From Clostridia bacterium (GTDB lineage Bacteria; Bacillota; Clostridia; Christensenellales; UBA1242), in NCBI GenBank assembly GCA_017452445.1, contig JAFTMH010000002.1, positions 723-64,722 of the forward strand: a stretch of 64,000 nt of DNA, in the 5' to 3' direction. Of this stretch, positions 4,592 to 61,819 are shown piece by piece. The notes beneath the pieces were generated by a model. It made no database searches, was not told where the DNA came from, and saw nothing but the letters and a program-made list of their open reading frames with translations. The position numbers were made by a program, and so were the translations under genes. How positions within the stretch are numbered: position 1 is the first letter of the stretch; the number at the start of each line of letters is the position of its first letter.

Positions 4592-7500
4592 ATGAAAACT
4601 AAAAACTTTTTATTTAGAAAAATATTTTATGTGCTTTTTGCATTCTGCATTTTTGGTGCAGGAATGTTTACCCTTGGCATAACTCAGAAACCAGGATTTT
4701 CAAAAGCCGAAAACACAATCTCAGAAGATGCAAGACAAGAAGACGCCGTGCCTTCTTATTTTTCTGCAAAAGAGTTTTTGGTTGATGGCAGCGACTCGAC
4801 AGAAAACTTTTCAAGTTTGATCAAGTCCAACACATTTATGTATTACAGCGAAGAGTCTGTTTCGACACAACTTCAACTCTCGCTCGCAACAAATGGTTTG
4901 ACAGCAAACACTGCCTCTACAAACGAAATTTACAAATATGTAAATTACGCAGATCCTCAAAACCTCACAAATTTCAACTTCTACAACATCTTTACAATTG
5001 AATTGAGCGTAAATGGACAAACTCAAAACCTCAATCCAGACTCATACACAACAAAGCCTGGTTTGTCATTCAACAATGCCGAATCATCACCTGTTGTAGA
5101 AACTTTTGAAATGAACTTCTCAAACCAAGCAACAGCAGGAAACAACATCTGCATTCTTGATGAAGATGGAAATGTTGTTGAAGGTTTGTATACACTTAAA
5201 ATCAGTTTGTTGCTTTTTACCTGTACTGATGGTGGAACAACTGCTGAAGAAGAACTTATCACAAGTGAAGGTGCAGACATTGTTTTCAACTTCTATGTGA
5301 TTGACAGAGAGTCTTATTTGCTCAACGGAAGACCAAATGTAGATTCTTACAATTTTGACCATTCGGTAAATGTGTCAAACCTTACAAATCCAACAGTTGC
5401 AAACTACTTCTACTCAAACTATTCGTCAAACGGCACAGCAGATCAAATTTCTTATATCGAATATGACTACACTCGTTTTGAAGTTGAAATCTCAAAAGAA
5501 ATTGGCGACAAAAATGGCGGAACAGTCAATGTGGTTTATGACCTTGACACTCAAGCCCCTGTTGTAAAGGGAGATCAACTTGTTTACACAACAGTAAACG
5601 AAGCAAACAAAACTTGCAGAGTGTTCTTCACAAATGTTGGAAACTATGTAGTAACTTACAAAGATATCCTTTTGATTGACTATCAAACAGCAGACGGACA
5701 AATCGCAAGAAAGTTTGCTTTGGTTGGATTGTCAAATGTGACAAAGAAACACCTTGTTTATGTTTATGGTTATCAAGCAAACTACACAGATTTTGACAAA
5801 CCTGCAATCAATGGAATCCGTCAAAACAGCGAGCTTAAATCATTTGACCTTGCGACAACATCTTATACAAATGGTGCAGACATCACAAGCAGATTCTTAA
5901 ATTCAGATGCAAGTTTTTCACAAGCAAATGCAACAACAACTTTCCTTGCATCAAACCTTACAAATTATATCAACACTTCAGGACTTAAACCTGTTGTAAC
6001 AGATCAAAAACCTATCGACTTTGACTCAAATGCAAAACTTGTTAAATCAAGCAGTTACATTTATTCAACAAAACAAATCTCAAACGCTTACAGTGCAACA
6101 TCTTACACAATCAATGGACAAACATTGTATAGAAAAGCATTTTCCGGAATCCCAGAAAGTTCTGAAGGCGTTTACCTTTACATAATCGCATATTCATTTG
6201 ACGACTTCTGGTCAAGCGAAACAATGTCAGGTGCGACAACAACTTTCTATCAAGCATTCTACTTTGAAATCAATGTTTCAATCCCAACAATCAAGATTTT
6301 TACAGCAGATGACAACACAAATGTTTCAACAGGAATGTTTGTAAACAGAGATGTCATTGTTGAAGACACAACACTTGCAAACATCTACAACAAAGATGTA
6401 ACAGTGCAAATCATCGCAAAAGACTATGACACAAACGGCTGGCTTACAGGGTTTGGCGACTCTTACGGCATAGCTTTGAAAGATTTGGTAAACGAAGGCG
6501 AAAATCGCATAACACTTTCTCGCAATGCCCACTACACAATCAAAATGTATTACACAAACGACATTGTTGAAAATGGACTTGCAAACGCACAATCTTTTAG
6601 AACTAGATATTTCACAATCGACAAAACAAGCGTGCAAGGCATCAAAGCAAGCAATGTTTCTGAAATCCCAGGATCAACAGACAGCAAGTTTGTTTCTGAC
6701 CTTAAACACTTCTCAACAAATCAAAACATTGTCCTTTCATGGCAAGAAAAAAACAGTGGCGCAGCAACTTATGCATATTATCGTTACTTCCCACTTGAAG
6801 AAACAACATATTACAGCACAAAAGAAAACCTTCTTTCTGCAACACTTGAAAGAATTTTGAGTTTAAGCAACCAAACAACTTATTTGCCTGTAAACTCTAT
6901 CTTGAACATGAGCACAACAAACAACGACTGGCTTTCATATTACGGAAACACAGCTCTTCTTGCAAACAAAAACAAAATTGCAAGCGACTATGTGCTTCCA
7001 GACTCAGGTTTGTATGTGGTTGATGTTTATGATGAAGCAGGAAACCACTCAATCGAAATCTTTATGATCGATCGCACAACACCTATTTTTGTGTTGTATG
7101 ATGGCAGCAGTTACAAAATCACAAGCACATCAATGTTTGTGTCAGAACAATCTACATTGTATTGGGGAGATTACAAAGGTATCCTCATCCAAAACTTCAA
7201 CACAGTTTCTTACACTGCTGGTTACACACCAGAAAACATCACAGAAAGTGATTTGGCAGGCAAAGATTTCTACATCGACAGAGAAGGAAACATTCGCACA
7301 GACATCTTTGCAGCAATGTACAACACTTTGAAGCGCAACAACTATTTGCAAAACTTGGCATTCAATGTTTCAATCGATTCGACCTATGGCGTTGATGTTG
7401 CAACTTATGCCGGAAACTATATCACAATCCCAATCAACGACATTTCTTACTTTATGGACAAAGCAAATCCAACTTACAAGGATCAAGTTGCTTCAAAACA

Positions 7501-10500: not shown

Positions 10501-12823
10501 CAACTACAACCCAAGCAAATATGTTGTAAAAACATTTGATTTCATCAACGGAACACAAAGCACAGATTGCGTAAATGCAACTTTGCAAACAACTCAATCT
10601 GCTGACGGAATCACAACAATCACCTACTTTACAACAGCAGAGGGTCGTCAATACAACCACAGTTTCATTATTGAAATTTGGGACGCTATGGACGAAACAA
10701 ACCTTATCAAAACAGTTCAATTTACACTTTACAACGAATTGCCTGTTGAAAACACAACAACAAACAACAACCTCCCTGGTCAATTTAAACTTTTGGATGC
10801 AAGCAGAAACAACATCACAAGCACAATCATTGGCGATGTTGCAGATTTGACTGGTTACTTCTCAGAAATCACAATCTTGTATGCAACAAGCGAAACATTC
10901 ATTCCTGTAAAATACTCAGTGAGCAGAGACAGAATCCATTGGGAAGAAATCTCTTCAGGCACAGTGCTTAGATGTCAATCAGACGATATGGAACAATATT
11001 ATCTTAAGATTTGGTATGACGAAACATATTTGCGCAACGAATATGATTCGACATCATATGTTTTTGGAAAAGTTTCAAATTCTCAAATCTATTCATTCAA
11101 CATTTCGTCATTGACTTCAACATTCTGGGTTGAAAAGACAGTAAATGGTCAAACATCAATCGTTGCAAAGAGTGATTCGATGTATAATGCGCCAGATGGC
11201 AAACAATTCTCAAATCACTATATTGTAAACTTGGATTACACACAAAGAGCCTCTGTAGAAATCAAAACAAACAAAGAACAAAAAATTGAACCTACACTTG
11301 TGTTTACATATCACGGTTCAAAGATTTCTTCAGAACATTGGACAATCACAAACAAAACTGCTGGTGACCTTGGAAATATCCCTGCATTTGAAACAAACAT
11401 CATCATCACATATATTCCAACATCAGACGATTTTGTTGAAGAATTCTATTCTCACAACGAAAACGGAATTATCGACACAACAACAAACCTTGTCAACAAC
11501 TCTTCTGCAAGCGTAGTGCTTTCACAAGTAACACTTGACAGAATCGAACTTCAATGGACAAAGTTTAACGGAATCAAAGAAAACGAAATCAACATTCTCT
11601 TGATTAAAGATGGCGTTGAAATGAATCCTACAATCTATTCAAGATCAACAGGCACAGGCGCCCACAAGAAAGAATACAACTATATGTATTTGACATATTC
11701 AGGAAAATACTCAATTTCGTTGTATGACACTGCTGGAAACATTCAAAAATTCAACCGTGGCAATTCTGGACAAACAGAATCATTGAATTTCATCTTCCTT
11801 AAAGATGTGCCATTTACAATGACATACACAGATGCTTTGACTGGCGAGGCAAAAACAATCCTTCCAATCAAACAATCAATCTTCAACGGAGATGTGACCG
11901 TAAACCTTGACAAGAAAACATTCCCTGATTTCTACACTGCTGTAGGCCCACAAGTTAAGATCAAGAAAAACGGCGTAGCTCTCACAAACTCAGAAATCAA
12001 AGAAATGACCACAGAAAACTCAAACACAAAACAATACAAGTTTAGTGGTGCTGGTTATTACGAAATCTCATTTGTGGCAGAAAGCAACATTCCAAACAAA
12101 GGAGAAATCAGATCAGAAACATACAGTTTCTCAATCGTAAATGAAAACGAATATAAATATTCTTACATTTACAACAAATATGGCTCTTATTATGTTGAAA
12201 AGGTAGAAAAAGATGGCAGAGACATCACAAGCACATTGCTCAAGATTTTGGATGTTTCAACAATCAAAATCAACAACAAGTCTTACATGACATCACTTCC
12301 ACTTTCTTATCTCGACGACAAAACTGGCGCTGGTGTTTACACAATCACAATCAACACAAACAACAACTTGATCAAAGCTGACAACATTACATCAACATTC
12401 AGCTACAAAGTGACAATCCGTTCTGGATCTGCACCAATCAAGATTTCAGTTGCACAAGGAAAGGCAACAACAAAAGCAGTTGCAGTTTCATTCAACGCAG
12501 CAAACATCTATGAAGAAATGGGTGAATGCACTTTGAAGATTGTTCGTTACTCAACAGATGGCAAATATGCCGGAGCAATCTATTCATTGAAAATCAATGC
12601 AACGACTCTTGAAGAAGAAGAAACAACAATCCCTGCTGGCGATTCTGGAACATATTATGTTCAAATCGTTTCACCAAGTGGAAACTTGTTGTATAGTTAC
12701 AGAGTTGAAAAGAAAGAACCTATGAACCCTGCTTCAATCATCATCATTGCCGTTGCAGCAATTTTGGTAGTTGTGCTTATCATTGTGATTTACAAGTTGA
12801 GAAAGCGTATTTCTGTAAAATAA
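4592..12823 (+). CDS. giant (2743 aa) N/T/Y-rich surface protein with N-terminal signal anchor and C-terminal TM anchor
   Basis: Uninterrupted 8232-nt ORF with a strong SD. The N-terminus is KIFYVLFAFCIFGAGMFTLGI. The C-terminus is ASIIIIAVAAILVVVLIIVIY followed by KLRKRISVK (TM ~12731-12793). Scattered G-x-Y-x-[VI] ... D-x-A-G-N strands (GLYVVDVYDEAGNHS, HTYYEVVETDKAGNMS, GKYSISLYDTAGNIQ) suggest Ig-like modules. No enzymatic or known anchor motif was recognised. Confidence 0.85.
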   Translation: MKTKNFLFRKIFYVLFAFCIFGAGMFTLGITQKPGFSKAENTISEDARQEDAVPSYFSAKEFLVDGSDSTENFSSLIKSNTFMYYSEESVSTQLQLSLATNGLTANTASTNEIYKYVNYADPQNLTNFNFYNIFTIELSVNGQTQNLNPDSYTTKPGLSFNNAESSPVVETFEMNFSNQATAGNNICILDEDGNVVEGLYTLKISLLLFTCTDGGTTAEEELITSEGADIVFNFYVIDRESYLLNGRPNVDSYNFDHSVNVSNLTNPTVANYFYSNYSSNGTADQISYIEYDYTRFEVEISKEIGDKNGGTVNVVYDLDTQAPVVKGDQLVYTTVNEANKTCRVFFTNVGNYVVTYKDILLIDYQTADGQIARKFALVGLSNVTKKHLVYVYGYQANYTDFDKPAINGIRQNSELKSFDLATTSYTNGADITSRFLNSDASFSQANATTTFLASNLTNYINTSGLKPVVTDQKPIDFDSNAKLVKSSSYIYSTKQISNAYSATSYTINGQTLYRKAFSGIPESSEGVYLYIIAYSFDDFWSSETMSGATTTFYQAFYFEINVSIPTIKIFTADDNTNVSTGMFVNRDVIVEDTTLANIYNKDVTVQIIAKDYDTNGWLTGFGDSYGIALKDLVNEGENRITLSRNAHYTIKMYYTNDIVENGLANAQSFRTRYFTIDKTSVQGIKASNVSEIPGSTDSKFVSDLKHFSTNQNIVLSWQEKNSGAATYAYYRYFPLEETTYYSTKENLLSATLERILSLSNQTTYLPVNSILNMSTTNNDWLSYYGNTALLANKNKIASDYVLPDSGLYVVDVYDEAGNHSIEIFMIDRTTPIFVLYDGSSYKITSTSMFVSEQSTLYWGDYKGILIQNFNTVSYTAGYTPENITESDLAGKDFYIDREGNIRTDIFAAMYNTLKRNNYLQNLAFNVSIDSTYGVDVATYAGNYITIPINDISYFMDKANPTYKDQVASKQEIPVTQEMTYRVLIRDMSNTKLDLNYSETALMQYTNFYSARQTLIISFDSSEFFIEYQNSKKETEYLTTNNTEEIVGEGGHTTKISYLNPTRMNKPLTLSYKPTITDGLQIQVESITINYTPYVKAYKLDPETGITYHYYKLSDHTTPIEVYTYNGSNPSVDLKTYDISLNSDNVTTEGKYEITRTYYLGEGYTYNENDFYKRTYILYVDRNEVISNSETVSNAEGTETHLESLIGGDVFVSMYDNKTNASLVITYPNSPEGNTNGSSLYNNGTVRSVLTTNMLPVNVYIPQYKYTISSKKTLLNDAGAYKYEVENNDVMNFYVEDDETTDGDETRIIREYGLYAEIYRNGTDSTNLIAKTARTNYNNPSLADVAADENGFLIFYNDKGNALQQLIDEGTYYVKLYQGMFGEGLDDNLYKQSITFSFDIERSDPNFTAQTTTGGALVSDLATVPNATVKETYFTNQANVNILWDAGSDYMAEIDIEKIVFKTSKGRTFSTADDIFTTAPFLSQKTYLATISLEKLDVYQHNAYVDITMQYKNHDSRFYNTVTKRIAVDLSAPSTNVQALVEKSLANRALYPTFTNAALRTYRTAKGDPATTLDNTSYNISTSTGDFAYYSYTVTSAYLQTLQTIVANEGYITYIRSFTDQNGENTKYVTGSQETSYTESLTGFKNVTEITQLDPHTYYEVVETDKAGNMSIYTIFVMDYTAQPTVNNVWELPENNIITYSDAHGNSHFYTIADYLAVNAYPNAINNIFSKSGFALTELNLFNDAWAQFQLNTINPTSGITVSYNLMLSPWKANKAIAYGVAGNTEFDIDKLINGSVASTRKHNIVFLNRENATPTTFYINIRNTTLNATLTTDQNREYIQFAMPADVEIQSPDYATTFVSSLSISADGQLIYQQENKLGYASLWRSTDNVVVTSNPSAKTIMFEISQELGFAPNTRIVYEYTDNYGTTYKEIHLYRETIIRQEVSSKEDLYSYYDNAGILHYITKDGFVYNYNPSKYVVKTFDFINGTQSTDCVNATLQTTQSADGITTITYFTTAEGRQYNHSFIIEIWDAMDETNLIKTVQFTLYNELPVENTTTNNNLPGQFKLLDASRNNITSTIIGDVADLTGYFSEITILYATSETFIPVKYSVSRDRIHWEEISSGTVLRCQSDDMEQYYLKIWYDETYLRNEYDSTSYVFGKVSNSQIYSFNISSLTSTFWVEKTVNGQTSIVAKSDSMYNAPDGKQFSNHYIVNLDYTQRASVEIKTNKEQKIEPTLVFTYHGSKISSEHWTITNKTAGDLGNIPAFETNIIITYIPTSDDFVEEFYSHNENGIIDTTTNLVNNSSASVVLSQVTLDRIELQWTKFNGIKENEINILLIKDGVEMNPTIYSRSTGTGAHKKEYNYMYLTYSGKYSISLYDTAGNIQKFNRGNSGQTESLNFIFLKDVPFTMTYTDALTGEAKTILPIKQSIFNGDVTVNLDKKTFPDFYTAVGPQVKIKKNGVALTNSEIKEMTTENSNTKQYKFSGAGYYEISFVAESNIPNKGEIRSETYSFSIVNENEYKYSYIYNKYGSYYVEKVEKDGRDITSTLLKILDVSTIKINNKSYMTSLPLSYLDDKTGAGVYTITINTNNNLIKADNITSTFSYKVTIRSGSAPIKISVAQGKATTKAVAVSFNAANIYEEMGECTLKIVRYSTDGKYAGAIYSLKINATTLEEEETTIPAGDSGTYYVQIVSPSGNLLYSYRVEKKEPMNPASIIIIAVAAILVVVLIIVIYKLRKRISVK

Positions 12824-12838
12824 CAAAACAACAAAAAA

Positions 12839-12862
12839 ACACGCAAAATTGCGTGTTTTTTT
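12839..12862 (+). terminator. intrinsic terminator of the 2743-aa gene
   Basis: Stem ACACGCA (12839-12845) / TGCGTGT (12850-12856), a 4-nt loop, then T6. An A7 run lies upstream, so it is potentially bidirectional. Confidence 0.85.
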
Positions 12863-12896
12863 ATTTATCTTTTGTTTGTTTAAATTGCATCAATAT

Positions 12897-12982: not shown

Positions 12983-13567
12983 TTATTGTTTGCTTTTGTT
13001 TTCAAAACACTTGATAATTCGGTAAATTTCGCCCCAATTTTGCACTTCTGTCACATTGTCGCAAACTAATTCGCCAAGTGGCATTGCACGCAAATAAAGG
13101 CATTTTATGCCATTTTTTGCAAGTGGAATAAGATTTTCAAATCTATCATCAATCATAAAGTCTACTTGTTCGTCTATGCAGGCTTGCAATTTGTTTTTTT
13201 GGTTGTAAACAACTTTGCTGATAGGAAACTTGTCCTGTGCAAGTCGTTTCTCTGTCGCCTCTTTTTCACCAGGTGCATTCATACCTCTGTTTGTGATGCC
13301 AACAAACGAATGTCCCTCATCTGCAAGTTTTTGCAACACTTCTTTTGCAAATGGCAAAATTGGTGCAATATTTTGCATTTCAACAAGGTTTTTGTTTAAA
13401 AAATCTTCAACTTGTTCTCTGCTCCAACCATAGGCATCTTCCAAACAAACATAACTTCTGTCGACAACTCCACAACCACCGTTTTCAATATCAAGCAATT
13501 CTGCCTTTACACGAAGGTATCTTTCGCTGTCATACAAAACTCCGTCAAAATCTACGCCAATTTTCAT
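12983..13567 (-). CDS. HAD-superfamily phosphatase, 5'(3')-deoxyribonucleotidase (NT5C/YorS)-like
   Basis: 194-aa ORF with SD AAAGGGG. It has HAD motif I (VDFDGVLYDS), motif II-like GITNRG and motif IV-like FMIDDR. Confidence 0.65.
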   Translation of the reverse strand: MKIGVDFDGVLYDSERYLRVKAELLDIENGGCGVVDRSYVCLEDAYGWSREQVEDFLNKNLVEMQNIAPILPFAKEVLQKLADEGHSFVGITNRGMNAPGEKEATEKRLAQDKFPISKVVYNQKNKLQACIDEQVDFMIDDRFENLIPLAKNGIKCLYLRAMPLGELVCDNVTEVQNWGEIYRIIKCFENKSKQ

Positions 13568-13633
13568 TTGTAACCCCTTTGTTTCGCCTTTATTATATCA
13601 CAACGACAATTTGTTCACAAAACATAAAACAAC

Positions 13634-13663
13634 AAAAAAAGACCGGTTTTTCGGTCTTTTTTT
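13634..13663 (-). terminator. intrinsic terminator (bidirectional) after the 1369-aa gene
   Basis: Stem AGACCG (13640-13645) / CGGTCT (13652-13657), flanked by A7 and T7 runs, 5 nt from the stop at 13669. Confidence 0.85.
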
Positions 13664-13668
13664 AGATG

Positions 13669-16600
13669 TTATTTCTTGAGTTCTTTGTCAAGTTTAACTT
13701 TTGATACTACAAAGTATACAACAACTCCAACCAAAACAAGAACTGAAACTACAATCAAAATTGTTCCAACAACTTTATAAACTGATGTTGCATCTTTTGA
13801 TTCTTCTGCAACTGTGATTGTAAAGTCTTTTGTTGCTGTGTTTCCAGCAGCATCTTCAACTGTGATTGTCAATGTGTAAGATCCAACTTCAGTAAATTCG
13901 TCGAATGTGTAAACTTTGTTAAGTTCTGTAAATTCAACTGCTTTTGAAGTAGATGTGTTTACAAGTTTAACAGTGATTGTTGGTGCTGTTGCATGGTTTG
14001 AACCATGGTCATCAATTGTCATATCATTAAGATCAATCTTAAGTGGTTTGCCATTGAGTTCGTAGCTGTCTTTGATGAAATCTTCTGGGAAGATCAAATC
14101 TGGTTCTTCTACGTCACCAACTTTGATTGTGTATGTTGCTACTGTAGGATCGTTCTTATCATCTCCATACAATGTGTATGTGATTGTATAAGTTGCATCT
14201 TTCTTAGCAAGCTTGTAAGTGAAGTTTTGTTCTACATTTTCATCATAAGTGTCACTACCTGAAGTTCCATCTGCATATTTGTATGCAACTTTGATTGTAG
14301 CTGTCTTGTAGTCGTCACCTTCAACACCGTAGATGTCAATTTCTTTTCCACCTTCTGGAATTTCTTCAAGAGAATATGCTGGACGGTAGTTGTATGACTT
14401 AAGTGTTGGTTTTACTGCAGAAACTGTGATTGTATACAATTCACTTTCAAGTGAGTGAACTCTAAATCCACCAAAGAGAGCTTCAAGGTTTGCACCTTCA
14501 AAGAATCCTGCTATGTCAGTAACATCTTCTGTTACATCAACGCCATCTTCAAAAACTCTGATTCCACCTTCAGTTTCTTCAAGTGTATAGATTGTGCCGT
14601 TGTCGAATGTCAAAACGCCATCAACAATTGCAACTTTTGCTGTGTTGTATGTGTAATACCCACCATCATTTGAAGAGATATCCCATTCTTCATAACCGTA
14701 TCCCAAAGTTCTGTCATAAACAGTTACATCTGCTGAGTAAACCACATTGTATGTGCCAGCCTTTGTAAAGATGTTTGTTCTGCCATAGTTTGTTGTCCAG
14801 TTTTTAGATTTTCCGTTTTCCGAAACACCATGAACGATATATCTTGCACTGATGTCGCCTTCTGTGCCAGCTTCAACTGCTGCTTGGTATTCTTCATAAG
14901 AAACGCTGTCTGCAATTGAAAGTTTTACAATAGGTTCTGCAAAGATCACTGTTTCACCAACCTTTGCTGTCTTTTGTGTCAAAGATGTTTGCAATCTTAC
15001 ATAATCATCTTCACCATTTGAAACTACATTGTAATTTACAAATGAAACGATTGTGTTGTTGTTTGCATCAGTAACTGACATTGCAACTTGGTATTCACCA
15101 GCTGCATAAGCAATAAACTTGCCTGGTTTAACTGTGTATCTTCCAGCTTCACCCTTCAAAACTTCTGCTTTTGATGAGTCGCCATAGATTGTTTCGCTTA
15201 TATCTGTCTTTGTTCCATCTGTTGCAACATGAGTCAATGTTACATCATAAGTTACAAATGCAACAGCATCGTCAGTAACTGTAAATGATGGAAGTTCGAT
15301 TTCAGCGCCAGCTTCATATTCTTGTGTGAAGTCTTCGTCATCCAAACTAATAAAGTTTGGAGCTGCGTTGTCTTCTGCATTCAAAACTGCTGCTGTTTGA
15401 GCTGAGATGTTTACATTTCCAAAATCATCATAAGCATATGAAACAACTTGGATTGTGCGAACATCTTTGCCAAGATCTTTCAAATTGATTGAATATGATT
15501 TTGATTCTGCATTTGTCAAATCTACATATCCTGCAGCACCATTTGTAAGGTAATCTGCATATTTTGTTGTCAATGCAACATTGTCTTCTTTTGCTGACTT
15601 AAGTGTCCAATCTGCAGAAACTTGTGACAAGTTTTCTGTTGAGATTGCAGCGCCTTCAGCATCAGTAACTGCAACGATTGCACCATTTTTGTCAAGTGCA
15701 CGATACAATGTTCTTACAAACATATTGTTGTCAGAACTGTTGTCTGCTGGTGTTGGAGCATCAAATTTAACAATTGCTGTTGGCAAATATGATGTTTCAA
15801 GTTTTGTCGCAACAGTAAATGTTGGCATATCCATATCTTCTGTTGTTGTAACATACATTGATTGGCTCTTAGCTGTGCTTTCGTTTCCAGCTTTGTCCAT
15901 TGCAATGTAGTGGATATAATATGTGCCTGTACCCATACCACCTTCGGCAGTTGTAGCACCAAATGTCTTGTCCATGTTGATATAAGCAAAACCTGCTTCA
16001 GCAGCAGCTTCGCCCTTAAACCAGTCAAGAGCATTTTCTTTTTCTACTGTGTCCAATGCTGCGATTTGATCAGCAAAGATGTCGTAGAGATGTGCGTAGT
16101 TGTTGTTGTCAACAACGATACGATAGTTGTGTTCTTTCAACCATGCAAGCATTTCAGCATCATTTGTGTGAGCTGCGCCATCTTTGTCGATTGCATGTCT
16201 GATAAGATAGTTGTTTGTGTAAAGATTTTCGTGAGCATCATCAAAGTTTGTTGTGTCTGTTGCTCTGTAGTTGAAAATCAAGTTGTATTGATCGAAATCT
16301 TTGATTTCTGCTTTCAATGTTGAAGAGCTGTCAAAGATCTTTCTTGTAAGTGTTACACCTTCCATTGATTCAACATTGTCTTCGATGCCTACGGCATAAA
16401 CTACAACGCTGTTTGGAAGTGTTCTTGAAGCGAGTTTGTATGCTTCGTCTGTGTATTTTTCATCTGCATCAAGTTCTACAGATGCATCATAAACGATTGC
16501 TTTTGGAGCTGTAGAATCTTTTACATCTTCCCATTCATAAGCACCAACTGTAGAAGATGCTGTTTTTCCATAAATGTCTGTAACTTTGTAAACAAATGAA

Positions 16601-17818: not shown

Positions 17819-17848
17819 ATTTTATCTTAATTTTAGACTGCAAGTCAA
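17819..17848 (-). promoter_or_regulatory. candidate promoter of the 1369-aa gene
   Basis: Minus strand: TTGACT (17843-17848), an 18-nt spacer, TAAAAT (17819-17824). The -35 is embedded in the inverted repeat GTCAATC-n5-GATTGAC (17844-17862). Confidence 0.55.
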
Positions 17849-18003: not shown

Positions 18004-18035
18004 AAAAAGACATAAAGCAGGTGGGCACCTGCTTT
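18004..18035 (-). terminator. intrinsic terminator after rplA
   Basis: Stem AAAGCAGGT (18014-18022) / ACCTGCTTT (18027-18035) with loop GGGC, 9 nt after the rplA stop. A T-rich tract follows on the minus strand. Confidence 0.8.
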
Positions 18036-18043
18036 ACTTAAAC

Positions 18044-18727
18044 TTAAATATTATAAGTTACTTTAACACCAGGGCCCATTGTTGAAGCCAATGTAACACT
18101 CTTGATATATTGACCTTTTGCAGCAGCTGGTTTAGCCTTAACAATTGCGTCCATAATTGTTGTGAAGTTTTCAGCAAGTTTTTCCTTGCCAAAGCTCTTC
18201 TTGCCGATGATTACGTGAACATTGTTTGTTTTGTCCAATCTATATTCAACTTTTCCGGCTTTAACATCATTGATAGCTTTTGTTACATCTGTAGTAACAG
18301 TACCACTCTTTGGGTTTGGCATCAAGCCTTTTGGTCCAAGGATTCTAGCGATTCTACCAACAACGCCCATCATATCTGGAGTTGTGATACATACATCAAA
18401 ATCCAACCATCCACCGTTGATCTTTGTTACCATATCTTCAGCGCCTACAAAATCAGCACCAGCTTTTTGAGCTTCGTCTGCTTTGTCGCCCTTTGCAATA
18501 ACAAGAACTCTTACAGATTTGCCTGTTCCGTTTGGGAGAACAACAACGCCACGAACTTGTTGATCTGCATTTCTTCCGTCAACACCAAGTCTAACATGCA
18601 ATTCGATTGTTTCATCAAATTTTGCTGTTGATGTTGCAAGAACATTTTCAAGTGCATTGTCAAGTTCGAAACTAGCGTTTTTGTCAAAACTTTCAAGGCT
18701 CTTTACATATCTTTTACCTTTGTTCAT
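18044..18727 (-). CDS. rplA: 50S ribosomal protein L1
   Basis: The 227-aa translation (…[25 protein letters not shown]…[15 protein letters not shown]…) is typical uL1. It lies immediately downstream of rplK. Confidence 0.97.
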
Positions 18728-18739
18728 AATTCACCTCTA

Positions 18740-19165: not shown

Positions 19166-19326
19166 TTTATTCCTCCTAATGTGGTCGTATTGAGTCTAGG
19201 CATGACCCTGCCACAAAATTTGACAGTTTAATGTCATGACGGACAAATTTTTGTTGAGATTGCTCTCATATATATTGTCGATCTTTTTGCAAGTTGCTGT
19301 TGCAAAACAATCGAAAATACCGATTT

Positions 19327-19854: not shown

Positions 19855-19898
19855 AAATCTCTCCTTCAAAAAAATGAATACTTTCGCCTTTGCCTAAA

Positions 19899-20255: not shown

Positions 20256-20309
20256 AAGTCCCTCCAAATTTTTATGCGATTTGCTTTTGCAAATCAAAGA
20301 AATCAAAAA

Positions 20310-20552: not shown

Positions 20553-20586
20553 GTATTTTTATAAATTTTGCCCAAGATTTTTGCAA

Positions 20587-33222: not shown

Positions 33223-33228
33223 GCCCTT

Positions 33229-58200: not shown

Positions 58201-61200
58201 TCGCCGTCACATATCTCAAATACATTGAAAACCCTGATGGCGAAGTCTGATTAAACACAAGTTTAACTTCTTTTCCACCGTCCATATAACTCCAGCCACC
58301 ACTGCTGTTTGTGATAAGTTTCATAGTCCCAAATTCAGGGGCAGAAGAAATGATAGCCTTGTTTTTGACATCAAGTCCAACATGCAATCCTTGAAGGCCG
58401 TTGCCGTTGATTTTCAATTCGTATTGCACTTCGGCGTTGTCAACAACGGCGTAAGCATAAACATTTTGCACATCTGTCAAATTTGGTGCAAACGCATGAT
58501 AAAGTCCCGCTTCCACAACGTGTTGAACAAGATCTCTTTGCACAGTCAAATTTAAAGTATAGTTTCCGATAAGGTTGTAGAACAAAACTCCTTCAGTCGC
58601 CAAAGTTTTCTTTTGTGCTGAGAAGTATCCTGTTGCACCTTTGTCGGCATTGCCTACAGTCAAAATACCAAAGTTGGTGTTTTTCTTTCCACTTTGCAAA
58701 TCACCAAATGAAACTGCACCAGGGAAACTGTATCCCTCTTTGAGATTGACTTTAAGCATAATATATTGCGTTTTGTCAACACTGTTTGTTGTGTCGTATG
58801 AAAATGTGAAAGATCCGTTTGTCATTTCAGAAAATTCTACGACAGTTTCCACTTTGAAATCTTGCGCACTTCTGCGATATGTAATTGATTCGATCGCATC
58901 GGCAAGTTCGAAATCGCCAGCATAATCTCTATAGTCGTTGTATGTGTCTTCTTGCGCCAATTGCTTAAATTTTACAGTAAAGTTGTAAGTGGTTGGGAGT
59001 GCATTTCCTGTGATTTTTGATGTGGCAGCCTTCCAGCTTGCGTGCCATTGTGCATTGTCAATTCTGCTGTTTGCAAATTGACCTCTGCTCACAGCACTTG
59101 AAAATTTGCTTGCACTGTAAGTTGTCCAAATTTCGGCAACTTCAAAGTCGTTGCTTCTCATATACACCCTGCTGCCATTTTTGATAACATAAGGAGTGTT
59201 GAACAACTCTGGATAATCCTCTTCAAGCACAGAGTCATATTCGAGGTTGTAATCAATGTAAACAACAGGTTTGCCTTGTGCGTTTTTGCTTACATTCCAA
59301 GTTGTGTCTGCAATATATTCTGCAAAGAAGTTGTCTCTTTCATAATCGTTGTAGATGATTTTAACCTTTACAGCAGTTGATGTGTTGTAAAAGCCCATAT
59401 CATTCCAAAGTGCAACAAGTCTAATTGTGGTTGCACCGGTTTCAAGTTTTGCCAAAGCATCTGTCACATTGTCCACTTTTGCGTTTGAAAGCGAAACAAC
59501 TTGTCCGTTTGTCACACTTGCAACTTGATAACCTGCAAGTTTGAAACCTTTTTTGATAAGCAAATCTAAATATGATTTTGCATATTCTTCATTGTCAGAA
59601 GTTGTTGGCAACATTGTGTTGTATGTTTCGTCAATCTTGATTGGATTCTTTTTTGCATCTTGATAAATTTTTCCATCAGAAGTCAACACCAATTTGTAAA
59701 TGCCTTTGTTTACTTTGTTTGTTGCTTGCTTTGATGCGACTGTTGAAGAATAGAAGATTCCACCAGCAGAGTCAATTTCCACTTGATAAAGTCTTTCGTA
59801 TTGATTTACTTTTAAATTTGAAAGATTGATATTGTGACTGTTTTCGCCAGCAACAATAAACAGCTTTTTGTTTGTAACAGCAGTGCCGATCGATGGGTTT
59901 GCAGTGTCTGTGGCCGAAGCACAATTTTCGTCACGGCAGTTTATGATGTAAGTTTCGCCAGCGACAGAACCTACAAAGGTTCCTTTGCCAACGGTGTTGC
60001 TTGTTGAAGCTGTCAAATAAATGACATTTCTCATTGTCAAATTTTTGATGACTGCGCCATTTGAAGTTTTTCCAAACAAACCATAATGAGAAAAACTTTC
60101 GTGTTGCGAACATGTAAGCCCCGAAATTGCAAATCCATTTCCATCAAAAACATCTTGGAAAGGTTTTGTTTCTTCAAAAATTCCGATTGGCATCCAAGTT
60201 TTTCCAGTCAAGTCAATGTCGTTTTGCAACGCATAATAAACTTTTGCCCCAGACTTAACTTTTTGTGCCTCATGGTTGAGTTTGTTGTAATAGAATGAAA
60301 CATATCCCAAATCAGCCGCTGTGAAAATTTTGTAAGGATTGTCAACCGTGCCTTCGCCTTTCAAAACATCAAGCCCCATTTCGGTTTTGCCAGAATAATA
60401 TGTGTCGTGATTGTTTGAGAAAATATTTGTGTTTCGCAAATATGGCAAACCACCATTTATACCAAACTCAATTCCCCAAATTGTGTCAAAATTCCAAAGT
60501 GTTTTGTAAGTCTTAAATCCAGCAACTCCACTGTCAATTCTTTCGCCAGTCCAATATCTGTCACTGCCATAAAAACCTTCGATATAAGCAAAATCTTTAA
60601 GTTCTTTCACATATCTTGAGCCAGAAGTTTCAATGTTGTCATAACACTTTGTCACTTTTGGAGTTTTTGTTGTTGTATACAAACTCTTGTTTGCAGGCAA
60701 TGTTGCCAAAGCAAAACAGTCAGTAAGTTGAGCATTTGTCGCATTGATGACACCAACAAGTCCACCAATGGTTGCATTCATGCCAATTGACGAAGAGGTG
60801 CCTGAAATGCTTCCTGCAAAATAAGAAGTGTGAAGCACATATTTGAATGTGTTTTTCAATATGTTGTCAACAGCACCAACAAGACCACCTGCTGTAATTT
60901 CTTTTGCCGAAAGTTTGATGCTTACAGTTGAAAACGAATCATAAATTTCTGGGTTGAAAGATCCAGAGACTCCCTTGCCTACACTTCCTACAAGACCACC
61001 AACATAAACCCCTGTGCCAGAAACTGCAAAAGATCCTTCAGTATAGCACTCGTGAATGTTTGCAACAGATGTCCCAACAAGACCACCAATGTTTGCAGTT
61101 GAAGAAGAAACATTAAGTCTCAATACTCTGCTTTTGCTGATTGTTGCATCAGCAGTGTTGGCAAAACCAACAAGTCCACCAAAGTGTGTAACAGATGTGC

Positions 61201-61819
61201 CGCCTGTGTAAGTAATTTTGTCAACAGAACAATTTTCAATTGTGTTTGGGTTTGATATGTATGAAAACTGAGCAACCAATCCACCAACATATTGGGCAAC
61301 CGAAGCATATGTAATATTTTCAAGGTTTAAATTGCGAATGTTTCCCACAACCATTCCAAAAAAGCCAGCATATGGTCCATCAGCAGCAATTTTGATGTTT
61401 GTGATTGTATGACATTGTCCATCAAAAGTTCCTTCAAAAAAGCTGTTTACTCCAATTGGTGTCCAAGCGTAATTTTTTAAGTCAATATCAGTTTCAAGGT
61501 AGATAGTGTAGTTTTGATAAGTTTTAGATCCAGAGTAAGTGTTTATTGTGTGTGCAAAATATGCAAGACCAGCAGCAGAACGAATTCTAACTTCATTTGA
61601 ATTGTTGCTATAAAAGTCTGCCGATGTGACCTGAGTTTCAGAAATTTGTGAAACACCGTCCCATTCGCTGGTTGGCGTAATTCCGTTCCATTCACTTACA
61701 CTTGATGTTTCTGCATAAACAAGATTGTTTTTCTCGCTGCTTACATCAAAAAAACTAAGGGCAGTAAAAAGCCCAAAAACTAAAATTAAAATTGAAACAA
61801 ATAAACTACGCTTCTTCAT
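43292..61819 (-). CDS. giant (6175 aa) surface protein: GLUG-type modules at both ends, a long array of InlB-B/Listeria-Bacteroides-type and Ig/MBG-like repeats, and a C-terminal TM anchor
   Basis: Uninterrupted 18,528-nt ORF with SD GGAGA. Signal peptide MKKRSLFVSILILVFGLFTALSFF. Six GGLVG/A turns lie in aa ~180-360 and end with WNFDTIWGI…NGGLPYL. DIDL…W-x-PIG modules occur at aa ~85-150 (ahead of the GGLVG turns), aa ~490-640 and aa ~6020-6130. There are dozens of G-[YF]-x-[FL]-x-G-[WF] repeats (GYTLVGWNY, GYQFVGWFD, YSFAGWSE, GYTFESWSV). The C-terminus is WYFYLIGLLGAALVVTVIVILVL followed by TRKRRKRRRKLSNQ (TM ~43337-43405). Confidence 0.9.
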   Translation of the reverse strand: MKKRSLFVSILILVFGLFTALSFFDVSSEKNNLVYAETSSVSEWNGITPTSEWDGVSQISETQVTSADFYSNNSNEVRIRSAAGLAYFAHTINTYSGSKTYQNYTIYLETDIDLKNYAWTPIGVNSFFEGTFDGQCHTITNIKIAADGPYAGFFGMVVGNIRNLNLENITYASVAQYVGGLVAQFSYISNPNTIENCSVDKITYTGGTSVTHFGGLVGFANTADATISKSRVLRLNVSSSTANIGGLVGTSVANIHECYTEGSFAVSGTGVYVGGLVGSVGKGVSGSFNPEIYDSFSTVSIKLSAKEITAGGLVGAVDNILKNTFKYVLHTSYFAGSISGTSSSIGMNATIGGLVGVINATNAQLTDCFALATLPANKSLYTTTKTPKVTKCYDNIETSGSRYVKELKDFAYIEGFYGSDRYWTGERIDSGVAGFKTYKTLWNFDTIWGIEFGINGGLPYLRNTNIFSNNHDTYYSGKTEMGLDVLKGEGTVDNPYKIFTAADLGYVSFYYNKLNHEAQKVKSGAKVYYALQNDIDLTGKTWMPIGIFEETKPFQDVFDGNGFAISGLTCSQHESFSHYGLFGKTSNGAVIKNLTMRNVIYLTASTSNTVGKGTFVGSVAGETYIINCRDENCASATDTANPSIGTAVTNKKLFIVAGENSHNINLSNLKVNQYERLYQVEIDSAGGIFYSSTVASKQATNKVNKGIYKLVLTSDGKIYQDAKKNPIKIDETYNTMLPTTSDNEEYAKSYLDLLIKKGFKLAGYQVASVTNGQVVSLSNAKVDNVTDALAKLETGATTIRLVALWNDMGFYNTSTAVKVKIIYNDYERDNFFAEYIADTTWNVSKNAQGKPVVYIDYNLEYDSVLEEDYPELFNTPYVIKNGSRVYMRSNDFEVAEIWTTYSASKFSSAVSRGQFANSRIDNAQWHASWKAATSKITGNALPTTYNFTVKFKQLAQEDTYNDYRDYAGDFELADAIESITYRRSAQDFKVETVVEFSEMTNGSFTFSYDTTNSVDKTQYIMLKVNLKEGYSFPGAVSFGDLQSGKKNTNFGILTVGNADKGATGYFSAQKKTLATEGVLFYNLIGNYTLNLTVQRDLVQHVVEAGLYHAFAPNLTDVQNVYAYAVVDNAEVQYELKINGNGLQGLHVGLDVKNKAIISSAPEFGTMKLITNSSGGWSYMDGGKEVKLVFNQTSPSGFSMYLRYVTATGDRFFEYRYQVMANGYKNEEKLYIYEISALPQYGDYDTDETRIDYVLNFNLNLNYLTWAEETVEHYTDTDFVFLASTEDSAIVFNDYVTQAGWDDYFPDEIKVGGEGGVTHTPLIEAEGAGGIKQPRKFVVEFVRVGHGYSSNYYEIKAVEKYTEASFRIKIVDSNGNMIMPGESPTSEFMHVAIPKYLITEDGTVTFKIATTPYYTIRNVFDASGTPQLIFATSATDTSELYNIHINPRKVSLDKGIGESDESYEQRCKDYMNALAQDNTRYFTREGRGPSISVTNDTFEIALPYNRATNAVGLQPGNYEITITCEIVYYKLEYGTRFLSYQDRDVLESELTLDDTGDGVYLAEEENSQITTHALREEADYDSAVQNIQYDDRMFISTQLGSNQAYFFKGWYIEAYNYQGYIRIGPDLFTAESFDFFYSDYYVDPAIVPEEYNTRYQTRIYAVYIKKQVTLTVYDYGILLDENGVDGVDVEKYLFEFEIMDLQFKIGETTPLTEQIYSYSSNAEEPLLLNGLAFVKNSGFGYYFDGYELVNEAGRVLQTIEGALIFDLHDYVKEMLENPIEGEQYINERRLYLKPLLRQKTARIFIYSGTGTATSYGDFKDNGIVYDYNGNETTDDVYEIVQMFYSQTVTFDSTEGYEFLLNGEETDLSANAVFASRKGYQLEPMKPWTVVEGNKGALDGSYLELNSNYFTEETAEVNYIEMHIYRAWKANEYTLVFRRGTGIFTPNTDDESVTVRVVYDQEYGSDCQLLSGVPTLRKIKYTGYTLVGWNYTHFDGTTVTTEFDAAGLFIGSTLFDEKGRYILEDPETGLPADMVYLLPEWGSGVYTIHIYTNGADTVNGIAVSGDKKENYLEYNINYNKTFAQMYVGSNDLEYVDLSSIVLTRKGFHFLNFSIKDGNYIAEITRDHIFDEFLRGMSLTRTPALTIYAQWSFDQESLQLELNNSYLPALKYNGQNQIVYLADYFYEGNYTAVGFNIDTGSNVLDIALKDANLTSLTIRFESLNAAKDQGQMAFSVKDCLTAGAYTATLYLSVDDEAKYLSLGTVWSAALNFNITVDAAEIEIDDSVTSEEVYVANIKRILAPYISATQKSNLESRVSLATVATFVRGLESGLDALSDIQVYEYTMVKYYFISVTNDASVLIYKNWTYQDYLDLRTSNEELADAIVNQMKYFDFYQYANNSGKQEIASYKSLSLKSPTVSNVSSDLEVVSLEINSHEILAQTLYTARVYVRSLGLGRGVTNYNLSYDEATGRYYIEGLQVFILPQVLVVENRQAEKSSYYNAYQTPEIEWQGSREYVDFEGQLHYLIEGNIYVAATLTTSTVGNKDGDTQFNFVDPTNYLYFVETSIVRKVGEDLIRSLSDFKLVMSESDIYTILNVNGIIDVIIDARYLTRNEGLLSFEQVDNALATKLLKIVSVTYTQGGKETTIREENGLAERAYSDGGAYFEIYTNNENMVYARINPAVTSITVIATETNLSEYISLYKWSQYAEFDVDGTMASDGTYTINRSDIEISEDSLTEVTYYAIYTDLVKTVYHYGFPEGFGLDTTAEGVLKLGSSTAADVRQPSVAGFQLIELQAERLDGSRVNYANIFTGAIGAGGGKTFVGLSSSAKFVTVNFYALWKAEEMQTYQILTTKKYPVEQFLGLNQEEVVGFDNKNTLIFTYTYKWLFEGELVKEGEVLQLAGNGTFNQTGNYSLVVTCSIIEEFKSALYDPGTGGTTTATINFYLEFVRNKIIAIQFPDEVTSVYNGQDQANQWGIEITFTQYNASTDDYQIAYSTATLYNSTVGTLYTQMYFNGGSDPVAEMKNAGYYIVEVCYSPASYILEDGLTQTSFVYTITPFVADIAELNVGFTKKFNTADPVLKVDTIFTAEMVTLIFARPLGEDVGIYNLYFEDIAQDYKGNYVFKMGGTTLFENGTKTVDCSTTAVGEFEIQKTGALKFAYETSAVNPAHIVRGYSNKGYTFTVNSDFVMQILSDGNVLNTFNLKLYDVSTNLEITNLEIKNLIRAQMGDITPKFYATDLLDIVYESAVYTYRFEIGEQMSRYFASVEFDQNYAFEVGQIQIDVSAIDFNKVYDAQTTATFDQLGNAVDLDEYVGMYILATYATSHAGENIKVELSLNNNDPTTNLGNYALAATSTTATILKRSATLTVSMTSANYVYGDISLRNIVDKVASIEVVDTEGNDVRSWLIDGYYNIRYGLADDVKINGSGYVYKGNYTLQITSTFDDFNMTVVSPSFTIDAMEIELTLGQGYISVTAVEKIKAAYEDVYSVGSTGDFLDISYRVVGQTVGANAQVGLWDLALNQSSFLEGSVVLLLPAGNEAFEVILATNILYLRLDPAQTSLLTKQYISSNYALSADGANKQLLITSVVTQTIDMKFFILEDENEVTINSADVSFDSIEITATGGVFSFQNAGSYRLVLKAEASGYETVVFDQEYYFIIEKQMINVDNLTLEKEYSGDSVGIIENFAEKLGSDNVSILVRYKTAEVGEDIEVSLFLQGAQAPNYQLSIEKSVGKITKASAVLSLTQTSWVYGMINSSNLFGHQLLVNGNIVPTSQYTIAFTVVDGRYSDFGYLNVGSYNIEATIVSNSYQITYVPTLVQITPYELDIEFLTNGLATYSYGAPETLTDEFAFEYQTQLFEDVTLILTRESGFAVGNYHVIDGRLDGSETNYTLLSLVDNSSEGMFRILKAIETVYLLLSNDETVTLGGTTATIEYDGNAYDSVAVEERSTGLYKLVIYNSKNKGVKREFDLNAYSLSNGTYTKIAGQIENLTAQVQFLNASNVKNIGTYEIFAGDITANNYNVMLGQNGAQYAYFFRILAKKLYFKQSLISKVFDNKSALFVYENAADMLDGVVEGEDIVLTIRLLDAGGMIVKYAGFDYTVDATIAGDTIGNYDFTRKTTLDGTPITGRIERAEIFIVLNTQKFKYGDDIDLKYSYRTDVDMTGYDMTRMSIAVNPAADAANYSSTGCLNAGEYAAVVTYSFEDFFCDKFIVDNAEQPSTTGASFVVEKVELTLVTMSNLSFQEIFTKTYDETVDVELVRDGTEVLGITGIITKGGVYDDVAIVSATYARETIGEGIVVTINIDGVDSQNYTIATWNHGVINPVIVFIEFDDNTEEETRSDVIINGLVEISELAYPFVSASNITSNSANTQTSTNKNFPTMLTGKTGHSFSHWVMIFRNIATETEEYTFLQSLISNYAMTATYNKGELSVIVANDAKTANFLNSLLRDQEDTLNKYYYKNHEDITITFTAMWSVNKFNVNITIADENGRNAQYGSVEIDDRDDSTENRFVTTTYRQQVEYGKGVTFIATANAHSKFFGFYRDSANAYEADGTTILINGNRIGFESVTREYNLIVRFRSQKITLELDLTEHPEAAIVAGNFNLVETGRYQLTLSYFEIESRKLDFLPSIDRVGYETIALKVGATEIAKEMYSTTLISSFVESEFDDEIISFVPVYTSIGLVVILDYGYDGITKSIAVSYDAPYQDAEGWDEAPSRYGYQFVGWFDHNSNMIVGTSIVSYTQEHTLTAQWDINKSTILFTVLNGRIENSTLEFTKGGNLYIANDVEYLKEISFKLVANQGYVFEATWAPEFTTTTNADGSLQVVFVMTANDYVYTLPIVARINRVVTKGSFVEGVTAFDITIDEIPITVVDKAFDIETGKTIRLVATASRGYQMTDNVEFDSTLGLIVDKTLSNGTLIMQIVGIFQDLEITFEAEEQINRITIEFEDITKVERVMVGDLTYADPTQVDVVEIETAQILKLGIVYKHGYTYGFNETNEFETRAREISSNQCEIIVSEIYSSGNIKIYHARAKFTVTIEVLSYNQDRELVNEPGNIALADGENPLQVEYLSTITLTYETATLYSFAGWSEDGENVFGSANGQRYTITDNIRLYAIFSTMKFYVTFATYNYYQIYTEYNDPTKTENVFEEVESKYYDEETSEQITSAEIYYGASKNILLEVQEGYKYAGYGFWKEDEFVFLTKTSVTDQLATVSLISSLFDEEVQEFTLYLLIEAYGSSFNFITEINIDGIRENNFNTAYINLSNADAEDVNRFGYVDGTRIHYSEEDFVDEELLDNKKFSVVAYTGDEVYIKLVIEKEGYVFDKIVSSRDDIAFDIYERTDDYIMFVFNEFIGGEDFDFEILIKPVLNTINLAFLNNDIRVDGGAFDIGLDENNAHKVWTSGNQMTYTQVSAYTDSRFVVYAYIRAGYYWKNDGTGIVDESGLIVEGSLEYEDLVIEQSGYTGRIKFEVADYIKENTISILVFTSLYSVRLVEDGQTLAIIKDVTFGSTLNLSEENTANITLVDDRLGFMGGKLRFDAMKRENHSFEGFFTYENGAGVRYINANGEAINSWAESGYILDTITSLYKLSTHAKVVNEETGEIEITLYLYWAYLKTRIEFNFVPEIDTKYTAKDMVSGVDFSNSWFYETSPHYIEVSFNTPIVISAPEFEGYKFYAFILSQRNHAGVWLQDVLIYTPQTPWSTNDVDRIVECQIKIIYYAHVEVLVSGGEANFKIAQDNADAQSKALLLENYVDTEKTFTIEALPIGGYTFESWSVLHEDEDFEDQTITLQIDKEATLVINLSGRPATLWFEEYSPQFGQIVQVAAYSLNLSKATYEMGYYSNGTFEKTITQVLVNVGDTVEFKIKVDSGFAVYWNRAEITFGRYDKGFYYFEMKVGTAMADQIIEIVPTFDNTIVSLYVSSSFDPIDIVDKTLDQNNIAAAGSIKHNGRATKVVVMETGKEILLETATTKRYEIVSITIENYGKSFGDMYEFYDDDTNTILLTPEYMQENNIVGIINLSIVYSRMHWEDESIFITGFAGQGSEKNPYKIGSTTELTLLMKLVNSGARNANGELYSRMHYELARNIDLSEKFWTPIGTILHPFEGVFNFNGHTVRGVQNAYVYKRVSYDGLFGEVSTASRLLSNKTASWYFYLIGLLGAALVVTVIVILVLTRKRRKRRRKLSNQ

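Follow-up and report, generated by a model that had tools for sequence, protein, structure and literature searches.

Among the surface proteins of Gram-positive bacteria, those called "C-anchored", a class defined by LocateP, have a signal peptide, a transmembrane helix at the C-terminus and a tail of positive charge, without an LPxTG motif (PMC2375117). Embp of Staphylococcus epidermidis has also been predicted to end in a C-terminal transmembrane region instead of an LPXTG motif (PMC7587433). Here, we describe three genes, A, B and C, in a stretch of 64,000 nucleotides from a Clostridia bacterium (assembly GCA_017452445.1, contig JAFTMH010000002.1, positions 723 to 64,722 of the forward strand). 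The whole of this stretch is called the window below, and coordinates are positions in it. Gene A (4592-12823, + strand) is an open reading frame (ORF) of 2743 amino acids (aa), convergent (head-on) with gene B (13669-17778, - strand; 1369 aa), which lies directly downstream of rplA, whereas gene C (43292-61819, - strand; 6175 aa) is found between trpS and uppP. We think it likely that the three are unrelated, lineage-specific and vertically inherited giant surface proteins, exported by the Sec pathway, anchored by a transmembrane helix at the C-terminus and probably serving attachment. Giant proteins with a C-terminal transmembrane anchor and many immunoglobulin (Ig)-like domains are a known kind; the families of A, B and C are new.

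What A, B and C have in common with the C-anchored class (PMC2375117) is the N-terminal signal peptide, the cleavage of which is predicted here, the single transmembrane helix and the Sec-dependent insertion, as proposed here, without dedicated machinery. Members of the class are usually small or medium-sized, whereas our proteins have 1369-6175 aa, and their anchors and tails keep the same residues from genus to genus, unlike those of the class. Ebh and Embp (~1 MDa), which bind matrix and come from staphylococci, are likewise giant, with an N-terminal export signal, a predicted C-terminal transmembrane region and a role in surface adhesion (PMC7587433). However, Embp is characterized by repetitive alpha-helical FIVAR/GA modules, DUF1542 and YSIRK; none of these Pfam families is present in A, B or C and the models of A and B are beta-rich, so the analogy is one of layout only. 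Multi-Ig adhesins and fibrils (arrays of Big, HYR, cadherin-like and PKD domains; SraP, the neck of GhpA) also form strings of beta-sandwiches with a G-x-Y-x-[VIL]...D..GN signature. These normally have recognisable tandem repeats and are anchored through LPXTG motifs or type I and type IX secretion systems, whereas the domains of A and B have diverged beyond self-detection by BLAST or hidden Markov models (HMMs) and are transmembrane-anchored. The large surface proteins of Bacillota and Bacteroidota with GLUG, Flg_new and YDG modules come closest to C, which carries these modules and shares the membrane-proximal domain, but more than 85% of C is unmatched, and it has a fixed length of ~6100 aa and a fixed position beside uppP. 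As with the adhesins of Mycoplasma and the giant proteins of Omnitrophota, the candidate phyla radiation (CPR) and DPANN, all of them very small microbes that depend on a partner, very long genes are retained in a reduced genome and code for extracellular proteins with a presumed role in attachment to other cells (bioRxiv 10.1101/2023.11.21.568195). A, B and C have no sequence relation to these proteins, and the giants of Omnitrophota contain many transmembrane segments and SecA-like domains that are absent here. Finally, bacterial alpha-2-macroglobulins, the top structural matches, are similar chains of MG-type beta-sandwiches, but A, B and C have no CxEQ motif or thioester domain.

Bacteria of the family UBA1242 are common in animal and human guts, lack most biosynthesis and the standard transporters, and are suspected of living off other cells. 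The window comes from this family: its RplA is 100% identical to that of a Candidatus Caccovivens sp. metagenome-assembled genome (MAG; JAZRRN010000043.1, locus L003), and the 80 best relatives of the rplA locus all belong to MAGs of uncultured gut Clostridia/Christensenellales. Caccovivens is the GTDB genus UBA11517 of family UBA1242, order Christensenellales, with a type genome of 1.1 Mbp and 34% G+C (PMC8035907). A 2025 study describes the genomes of UBA1242 as reduced, mostly <1 Mbp, and predicts an obligate symbiont or parasite lifestyle on metabolic grounds (PMC12306168). With a genome size of ~0.7-1.1 Mb for Candidatus Caccovivens/UBA1242, the 30,870 nt of A, B and C, which are 48.2% of the window, amount to ~3% of the genome (30.9 kb of ~1.1 Mb).

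The topology of the three proteins was analysed by a Kyte-Doolittle hydropathy scan. Each of them has one strong hydrophobic segment at the N-terminus and another at the C-terminus, the latter within the last 45 residues and with a maximum of 3.1-3.6; C has in addition a marginal third window near aa 4660 (1.83), which is most likely a buried strand. In all three, hydropathy and motifs give the n-h-c layout of a signal peptide and a conserved AxA-type site. For A, the predicted signal peptide comprises aa 1-39 (4592..4708, +) with a hydrophobic segment and cleavage at SKA/E (the slash marks the cut); throughout the family alignment, neither the AxA/E motif nor A39 varies, and the AlphaFold2 model has a helix at aa 5-28. 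For B, it comprises aa 1-37 (17668..17778, -), with predicted cleavage at ALA/S and the consensus VALA kept, and for C aa 1-36 (61712..61819, -), with predicted cleavage at VYA/E, the site being of ASA type in many C orthologues. In most C orthologues (P0059-P0096), a short motif A-S-V-W-D-G stands right after the predicted cleavage site, where the C of the window reads SEWNG and SEWDG.

The C-terminal anchors are very well conserved. In A, a transmembrane helix at aa 2714-2734 (Kyte-Doolittle maximum 3.64) is followed by the tail KLRKRISVK (12731..12820, +), and the module formed by SPSGNLLYSYKV.K.EP[LM]N.A, the helix and KLRKRI.VK is conserved in 32 of the 33 family members. The helix of B at aa 1336-1358, with the tail SKVKLDKELKK (13672..13773, -), hardly varies among 24 orthologues and 26 loci, the C-terminal module VGTILIV.SVLVL.GVIVYFIVSKVKLDKELKK being almost constant. 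The hydropathy scan places the helix of C at aa 6139-6162 with the tail RKRRKRRRKLSNQ (43295..43405, -), and its anchor, YNGLFG...WY.YLI, the helix and [KR]KRKK.RE.L..K, is kept in the orthologues as well as in remoter relatives, which have 900-5500 aa. Within the helix of B (13705-13773, -), the invariant residues G, L, V, V, L, G, V, Y and F, two of them glycines, are spaced 2-4 apart, which suggests a single conserved face, as for helix-helix packing in the membrane.

No known wall-anchoring module accompanies these helices. LPXTG, SLH, LysM and choline-binding modules gave no Pfam or NCBIfam match in A, B or C, and Pfam showed no CWB2 or similar wall-binding module in them either. The NCBIfam models of C-terminal sorting signals did not match the isolated C-termini even at E<=1; the string LPxTG occurs nowhere in the three proteins, and the looser pattern [LIVSN]Px[TSAG][GASND] was not found beside the helix. 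The layout of a sortase substrate is matched only in part, with a positive tail after the hydrophobic segment and no LPXTG-type motif. Of the features that LocateP asks of C-anchored proteins, two are seen here: a pair of hydrophobic segments and no others, at the N-terminus and the C-terminus, with over 45 aa between them (C having its marginal extra window), and a C-terminal transmembrane helix with a positive tail in the absence of LPxTG. The third, a cleaved signal peptide, is predicted from the n-h-c layout and the AxA-type sites. Among the other ORFs of the 64-kb window there is no sortase, glycosyltransferase or dedicated secretion gene; the only related ones are secE (19899-20306), for a subunit of the general Sec system, and the gene of a flippase of MurJ/SpoVB type (29658-31244). 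An earlier reading of this DNA, made from the letters without database searches (the sequence-only reading), had described three giant ORFs that total 30,870 nt (~48% of the window), start with a signal sequence and end in a hydrophobic helix followed by a K/R tail, and had seen neither LPXTG, SLH, choline-binding or LysM modules in them nor sortase, glycosyltransferase or dedicated secretion genes in the 64 kb. All of this holds, down to the coordinates and the tails that it quoted, and its picture of a small, attachment-centred genome fits the literature (PMC8035907, PMC12306168). Its mention of an "uncharacterised" display route was overstated, since the C-anchored class is established (PMC2375117) and the same layout has been predicted for Embp (PMC7587433).

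The ectodomains of A and B belong to a familiar fold class. The A family consists of 33 collinear orthologues of ~2700-2950 aa, annotated as "hypothetical" and without Pfam matches. A itself has no Pfam or NCBIfam match at all, and a PDB sequence search with its profile found none. The AlphaFold2 model of its aa 1-1200, obtained from the orthologue alignment, is beta-rich, with a mean predicted local distance difference test score (pLDDT) of 84.6 and a predicted template modelling score (pTM) of 0.54, and a Foldseek search of the PDB with this model matched only multi-beta-sandwich chains. The B family comprises 24 collinear orthologues of 1367-1491 aa and 33-98% identity, and its profile matches a cadherin-like module of SraP and a collagenase PKD domain. 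The corresponding model of B aa 170-1369 (mean pLDDT 79.5) contains some ten beta-sandwich domains plus a single helical insert, and it retrieved Ig-like chains from the PDB with Foldseek: MG domains of alpha-2-macroglobulin, the neck of GhpA, DSCAM, cadherins, the S-layer protein Sap (9g93) and 7ptp. Whole-chain template modelling scores (TM-scores) are ~0.1 for both proteins, so the resemblance to Ig-like PDB chains is at the level of domain type. Moreover, the B consensus repeats the strand pattern G.Y.[IV].Y...D..GN, its last Ig-like domain (aa 1263-1323, 13810..13992, -) is Big_13/He_PIG-like (Pfam Big_13, E 4e-5, 24.5 bits, below the 27-bit cut-off), and several B orthologues carry precomputed PF19077, PF02494 or PF13750 assignments. 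Thus, as modelled, A over aa 1-1200 and B over aa 170-1369 are strings of Ig-like beta-sandwich domains. The motif G-x-Y-x-[VIL], a familiar strand signature of such domains and already pointed out in all three proteins by the earlier reading, is indeed 3-5 fold enriched over shuffled sequences (A 10 vs 2.2, B 7 vs 1.3, C 20 vs 6.9), and it occurs at 0.6 per 1000 aa in the housekeeping proteins of the window. Alpha-2-macroglobulin or thioester kinship, to which the top Foldseek matches could point, was rejected: there is neither a CxEQ thioester motif nor a thioester domain in A, B or C, and Cys is almost absent, the sole Cys of B lying in the signal peptide.

Gene C is of a different composition. 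About 40 collinear orthologues of 5800-6400 aa were found by an exhaustive HMMER search, and in an alignment-based metagenome scan the order C-uppP-CaATPase-holB-ricT of the window recurred in 9 metagenome loci. More than 85% of C is without any family match, and a PDB sequence search with its C-terminal half found none. The recognisable modules begin with an N-terminal GLUG-type domain (aa 106-287, 60959..61504, -) that matches PDB 3n6z, a putative IgA1 protease, with E 1.7e-5, the Pfam Glug model itself staying below its cut-off (17.8 bits vs 20.5). They continue with a YDG domain (aa 4242-4311, 48887..49096, -; PF18657, 32.1 bits against a 25-bit cut-off), a Listeria-Bacteroides repeat of Flg_new type (aa 4692-4743, 47591..47746, -; TIGR02543, 27.4 bits against 20.95, with Pfam Flg_new weak) and a Flg_new_2 repeat (aa 5741-5787, 44459..44599, -; PF18998, 32.3 bits against a 23.6-bit cut-off). 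The last one, next to the membrane, is a GLUG-type domain at aa ~6025-6130 (43430..43747, -) with a conserved YNGLFG motif, common to many proteins of 2000-3800 aa that carry Pfam Glug. C has only a few internal repeats, of GLUG type at aa 1-225, 451-675 and 6001-6150 and as a duplicated pair at 3226-3450 and 3601-3825. In A and B, BLASTP and HMM self-comparison detected no internal sequence repeats.

The three families are confined to this clade and annotated as hypothetical. A common ancestry of A, B and C was considered and rejected, as BLASTP found no cross-similarity and profile-profile comparison of A with B (hhalign) aligned only the transmembrane helix and tail, and weakly. Within families, the orthologues are conserved evenly along their length, with few indels and the total length kept. 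Their ectodomains change fast: for loci L004-L034, the median identity to the window protein is 35% for the B ectodomain and 40% for A, in comparison with 86% for RplA, 85% for DnaX and 70% for ArgS, and the divergence of the A and B orthologues tracks that of the housekeeping genes. The helix and tail of B, in contrast, are 74% identical in the same loci. Codons under the invariant tail residues of A and B vary synonymously, which indicates selection on the peptide and not on the DNA. Fast ectodomains of fixed length and collinearity together with near-invariant anchors fit exposed contact proteins, and the invariant helices and tails suggest a conserved partner in the membrane or the cytoplasm.

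With these elements, a display route can be proposed that uses only general machinery. The precursors would be exported through the general Sec pathway by means of the N-terminal signal peptide, which signal peptidase I would remove at the conserved AxA-type site. The C-terminal helix would act as a stop-transfer sequence and keep the product, a bitopic protein of type I, in the cytoplasmic membrane, the short basic tail remaining inside; neither a sortase nor a dedicated secretion system would be needed for this route. The ectodomains would then project from the membrane through the wall, A and B as long, non-repetitive strings of divergent Ig-like domains and C with its GLUG, YDG and Flg_new-type modules. 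As only ~8-20 residues link the last domain to the helix, the membrane-proximal domains would themselves have to cross the wall. At ~4 nm per domain, if extended, we estimate that B, A and C may reach from tens to a couple of hundred nanometres. The membrane-proximal ends may engage the conserved membrane or cytoplasmic partner, and the distal parts may attach the cell to a partner cell, a host surface or a particle in the gut. Attachment is in our opinion the most likely role, given a metabolically dependent lineage, fast-evolving ectodomains of an adhesin type and the Flg_new, GLUG and YDG modules of C.

To follow the history of the gene order, we compared 80 related species over 20-kb loci that surround rplA. 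In the window, the secE-nusG-rplK-rplA cluster (18044..20306, -; NCBIfam equivalog matches) ends without rplJ-rplL, and rplA is followed by an intrinsic terminator-like hairpin with an 11-bp stem and then a T run (18012..18037, -). Neither rplJ (L10) nor rplL (L7/L12) has a match anywhere in the 64 kb, and none was found within 10 kb in the 32 closest loci (L003-L034, RplA 79-100% identical). In 31 of these 32, a B orthologue of ~1400-1550 aa comes directly after rplA, followed by a convergent A orthologue wherever the contig continues. Further away (RplA 73-77%), 18 loci are without B, and a convergent A orthologue of 2700-3000 aa adjoins rplA there. In 15 other loci, which form the outgroup, rplJ-rplL follow rplA, the identity of L10 and L7/L12 being confirmed in L065. 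A neighbour-joining tree of NusG, RplK and RplA gathers all the loci where A adjoins rplA in one clade, with the B-plus-A loci as a subclade within it and all the rplA-rplJ-rplL loci outside. In L049 and L055, rplJL is located ~5 kb upstream of rplA and inverted, so that it is simply elsewhere. This distribution would be explained most simply by a single old rearrangement at the base of the clade that split rplKA from rplJL and put A beside rplA, B being gained later between the two.

Two deviations from these gene orders were observed. L028 (CALWJY010000015.1, 10682-20681) is the sole locus nested in the B-plus-A subclade without B and A after rplA; it has genes of 497 and 661 aa there, which suggests a secondary rearrangement or loss. 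In the outgroup locus L065 (11306-17725), where rplA-rplJ-rplL is retained, as it is in L059, the next large gene is addB. The expectation of rpoB after rplL in outgroup relatives was therefore rejected, and the rplKAJL-rpoBC block was already broken after rplL in sister lineages. Between A and B lies a 194-aa gene (12983..13567, -) with weak NT5C/HAD matches. Of the close loci, only that of the nearest strain (L003) has it and L004-L034 lack it, hence a recent small insertion into an otherwise old pair. It is flanked by two bidirectional, terminator-like hairpins, one 3' of A (12830..12865) and the other after B (13633..13664), and a promoter-like site upstream of B (17819..17848, -) agrees with the consensus at 10 of 12 positions, this being a consensus match only.

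The sequence-only reading had suggested that an insertion or rearrangement brought in the A-B pair, as a surface-protein island interrupting the rplKAJL operon where rplJL-rpoBC normally follow rplA. Some of the facts point that way: rplJL is missing after rplA, a terminator stands there (the reading placed it at 18004-18035, and it was found at 18012-18037), and a strain-specific small gene, the HAD-like one, lies between A and B. In the 15 outgroup loci, rplJL does come after rplA. Nevertheless, we regard recent acquisition as very improbable, because the marks of a horizontal island are missing: G+C is even over the whole window (0.33-0.40), no integrase, transposase or other mobility gene was found among the window ORFs, orthologue divergence follows that of housekeeping genes, and the whole clade, single on the tree, has the genes at the same position. 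The same reading had named a comparison of synteny around rplA as a check, with an ancient shared gene order as the outcome that would speak against an island, and the relatives, close and distant, do keep the order of rplA and giant gene as an old arrangement with rplJL elsewhere. A, B and C are thus old, stably placed core genes of the lineage and not a newly inserted island. Another explanation concerns the anchor: the helix and basic tail could be a cleaved sorting signal of an unrecognised type, read by a sortase-, exosortase- or archaeosortase-like enzyme, the mature proteins then being linked to the wall or to a lipid. Motif, helix and basic tail are formally the layout of LPXTG, PEP-CTERM and PGF-CTERM signals, and the C relatives of 900-5500 aa share a similar module GLFG...TM...RKRKK.REEL (TM being the transmembrane helix). 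However, the modules of A, B and C have no juxtamembrane motif in common outside the membrane, which argues against a single sorting enzyme, as substrates of one enzyme normally share one. The sorting-signal models and LPxTG searches were negative, and no candidate enzyme was found near the A, B and C genes in the 64 kb or in ~100 related 20-kb loci. The tails are conserved to the last amino acid under synonymous change, which argues that they are retained in the mature protein; a discarded signal would need only positive charge. We consider a cleaved signal improbable, although less so than the island.

A further possibility is that A, B and C, inserted in the membrane with the very topology proposed above and different from that proposal in function only, are mainly structural and not adhesins, surrounding the cell with a coat like an S-layer or with a spacer or scaffold whose height is fixed. 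Length and collinearity are strictly kept across species, A and B are without repeats, the genes are core genes at fixed positions, and the Foldseek matches include the Ig-like S-layer proteins B. anthracis Sap (9g93) and 7ptp; the conserved face of the B helix suggests lateral packing. On the other hand, SLH or other S-layer anchoring modules are absent according to Pfam, S-layer proteins usually have 40-200 kDa, versus 300-680 kDa here, and the likeness to them in Foldseek is generic at TM-scores of ~0.1. Fast ectodomain divergence fits a coat as well as an adhesin. We take a mainly structural role to be unlikely, while giving it more weight than a cleaved sorting signal. Several points do weigh against Sec-exported, transmembrane-anchored attachment proteins as we propose them. 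Signal cleavage and transmembrane insertion rest on hydropathy and motifs, and the organism is known from MAGs alone. The fold models cover A aa 1-1200 and B aa 170-1369 and no part of C. In the A family, the conserved K.EP[LM]N.A just outside the membrane, directly before the helix, forms with helix and tail something formally like a tripartite sorting signal, and the search for a sorting enzyme covered the window and the related loci, not the rest of the genome. Classical repeat adhesins vary in repeat number; a conserved length without such variation is unusual for them and would also fit a structural coat.

Beyond the attachment proteins that we favour, one may speculate, as an unlikely extension, that A, B and C form a joint, conserved contact apparatus for an epibiotic or parasitic life of the Gram-positive, spore-former-derived, ultra-small UBA1242. 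Distal Ig-like domains, evolving fast, would recognise the partner cell, and the invariant transmembrane helices and tails (SKVKLDKELKK, KLRKRI.VK, RKRKKRREEL..K) would dock to an intracellular or membrane partner, coupling attachment to uptake. If true, this would be a Firmicute apparatus corresponding to the machinery by which Mycoplasma or Patescibacteria attach.

The remaining ORFs of the window are housekeeping genes, plus a few unknowns: secE, nusG, rplK, rplA, argS, recR, ybaB, dnaX, tpiA, pgk and dusB, and further the MurJ/SpoVB-type flippase, rplI, ksgA, tatD, ricT, holB, a Ca-ATPase, uppP and trpS. At the beginning, the window edge cuts a 23S rRNA gene, leaving its 5' 1218 nt at positions 1-1236 (-); the ORFs at 289-1198 are spurious. 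A fourth, small surface protein is encoded at 1776-2741 (-): a predicted lipoprotein of 321 aa with four Flg_new_2 repeats, whose signal peptide ends in the lipobox FVGC and whose anchor hence differs from those of A, B and C. At 3751-4392 (-), a four-transmembrane protein resembles KwaA from Kiwa, an anti-phage system (PADLOC E 2.5e-17; 64 bits with the NCBIfam model, whose cut-off is 100 bits), and downstream of it a 237-aa protein (2928-3641, -) has no defence-family match and only a weak WG_beta_rep one. A phage-defence role of the KwaA-like neighbour was rejected for lack of a recognisable KwaB partner. Between argS and rpmG, at ~20624-20893 and ~21014-21235 (-), an 89-aa antitoxin with a weak likeness to HicB and a protein of 73 aa without assignment may represent a toxin-antitoxin remnant within the housekeeping block; these gene calls were taken from an identical Logan contig, with coordinates converted from L001. 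Typical gamma/tau DnaX proteins have 560-640 aa. The dnaX of the window (25207-26310, -) encodes only 367 aa and matches just the N-terminal ~355-residue part, that is, the dnaX_nterm model, which may reflect genome reduction. Finally, a 446-aa protein at 31897-33237 (-) has no family match or transmembrane segment; it has an acidic/helical core and a low-complexity C-terminal third rich in Lys, Gly and Pro.

What seemed to be an island, giant genes filling the gap in a ribosomal-protein operon, is actually an old, fixed rearrangement. For reduced-genome symbionts, we think that the strict conservation of such genes in a genome of <=1.1 Mb, with tails that are invariant to the residue, is noteworthy. 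The invariant tail peptides are possible antibody targets, the ectodomains possible baits for partners, and the genes possible marker loci for the clade. Being fixed in position and length across the clade and nearly unannotated, A, B and C are, in our opinion, the first candidates for the contact machinery of UBA1242.

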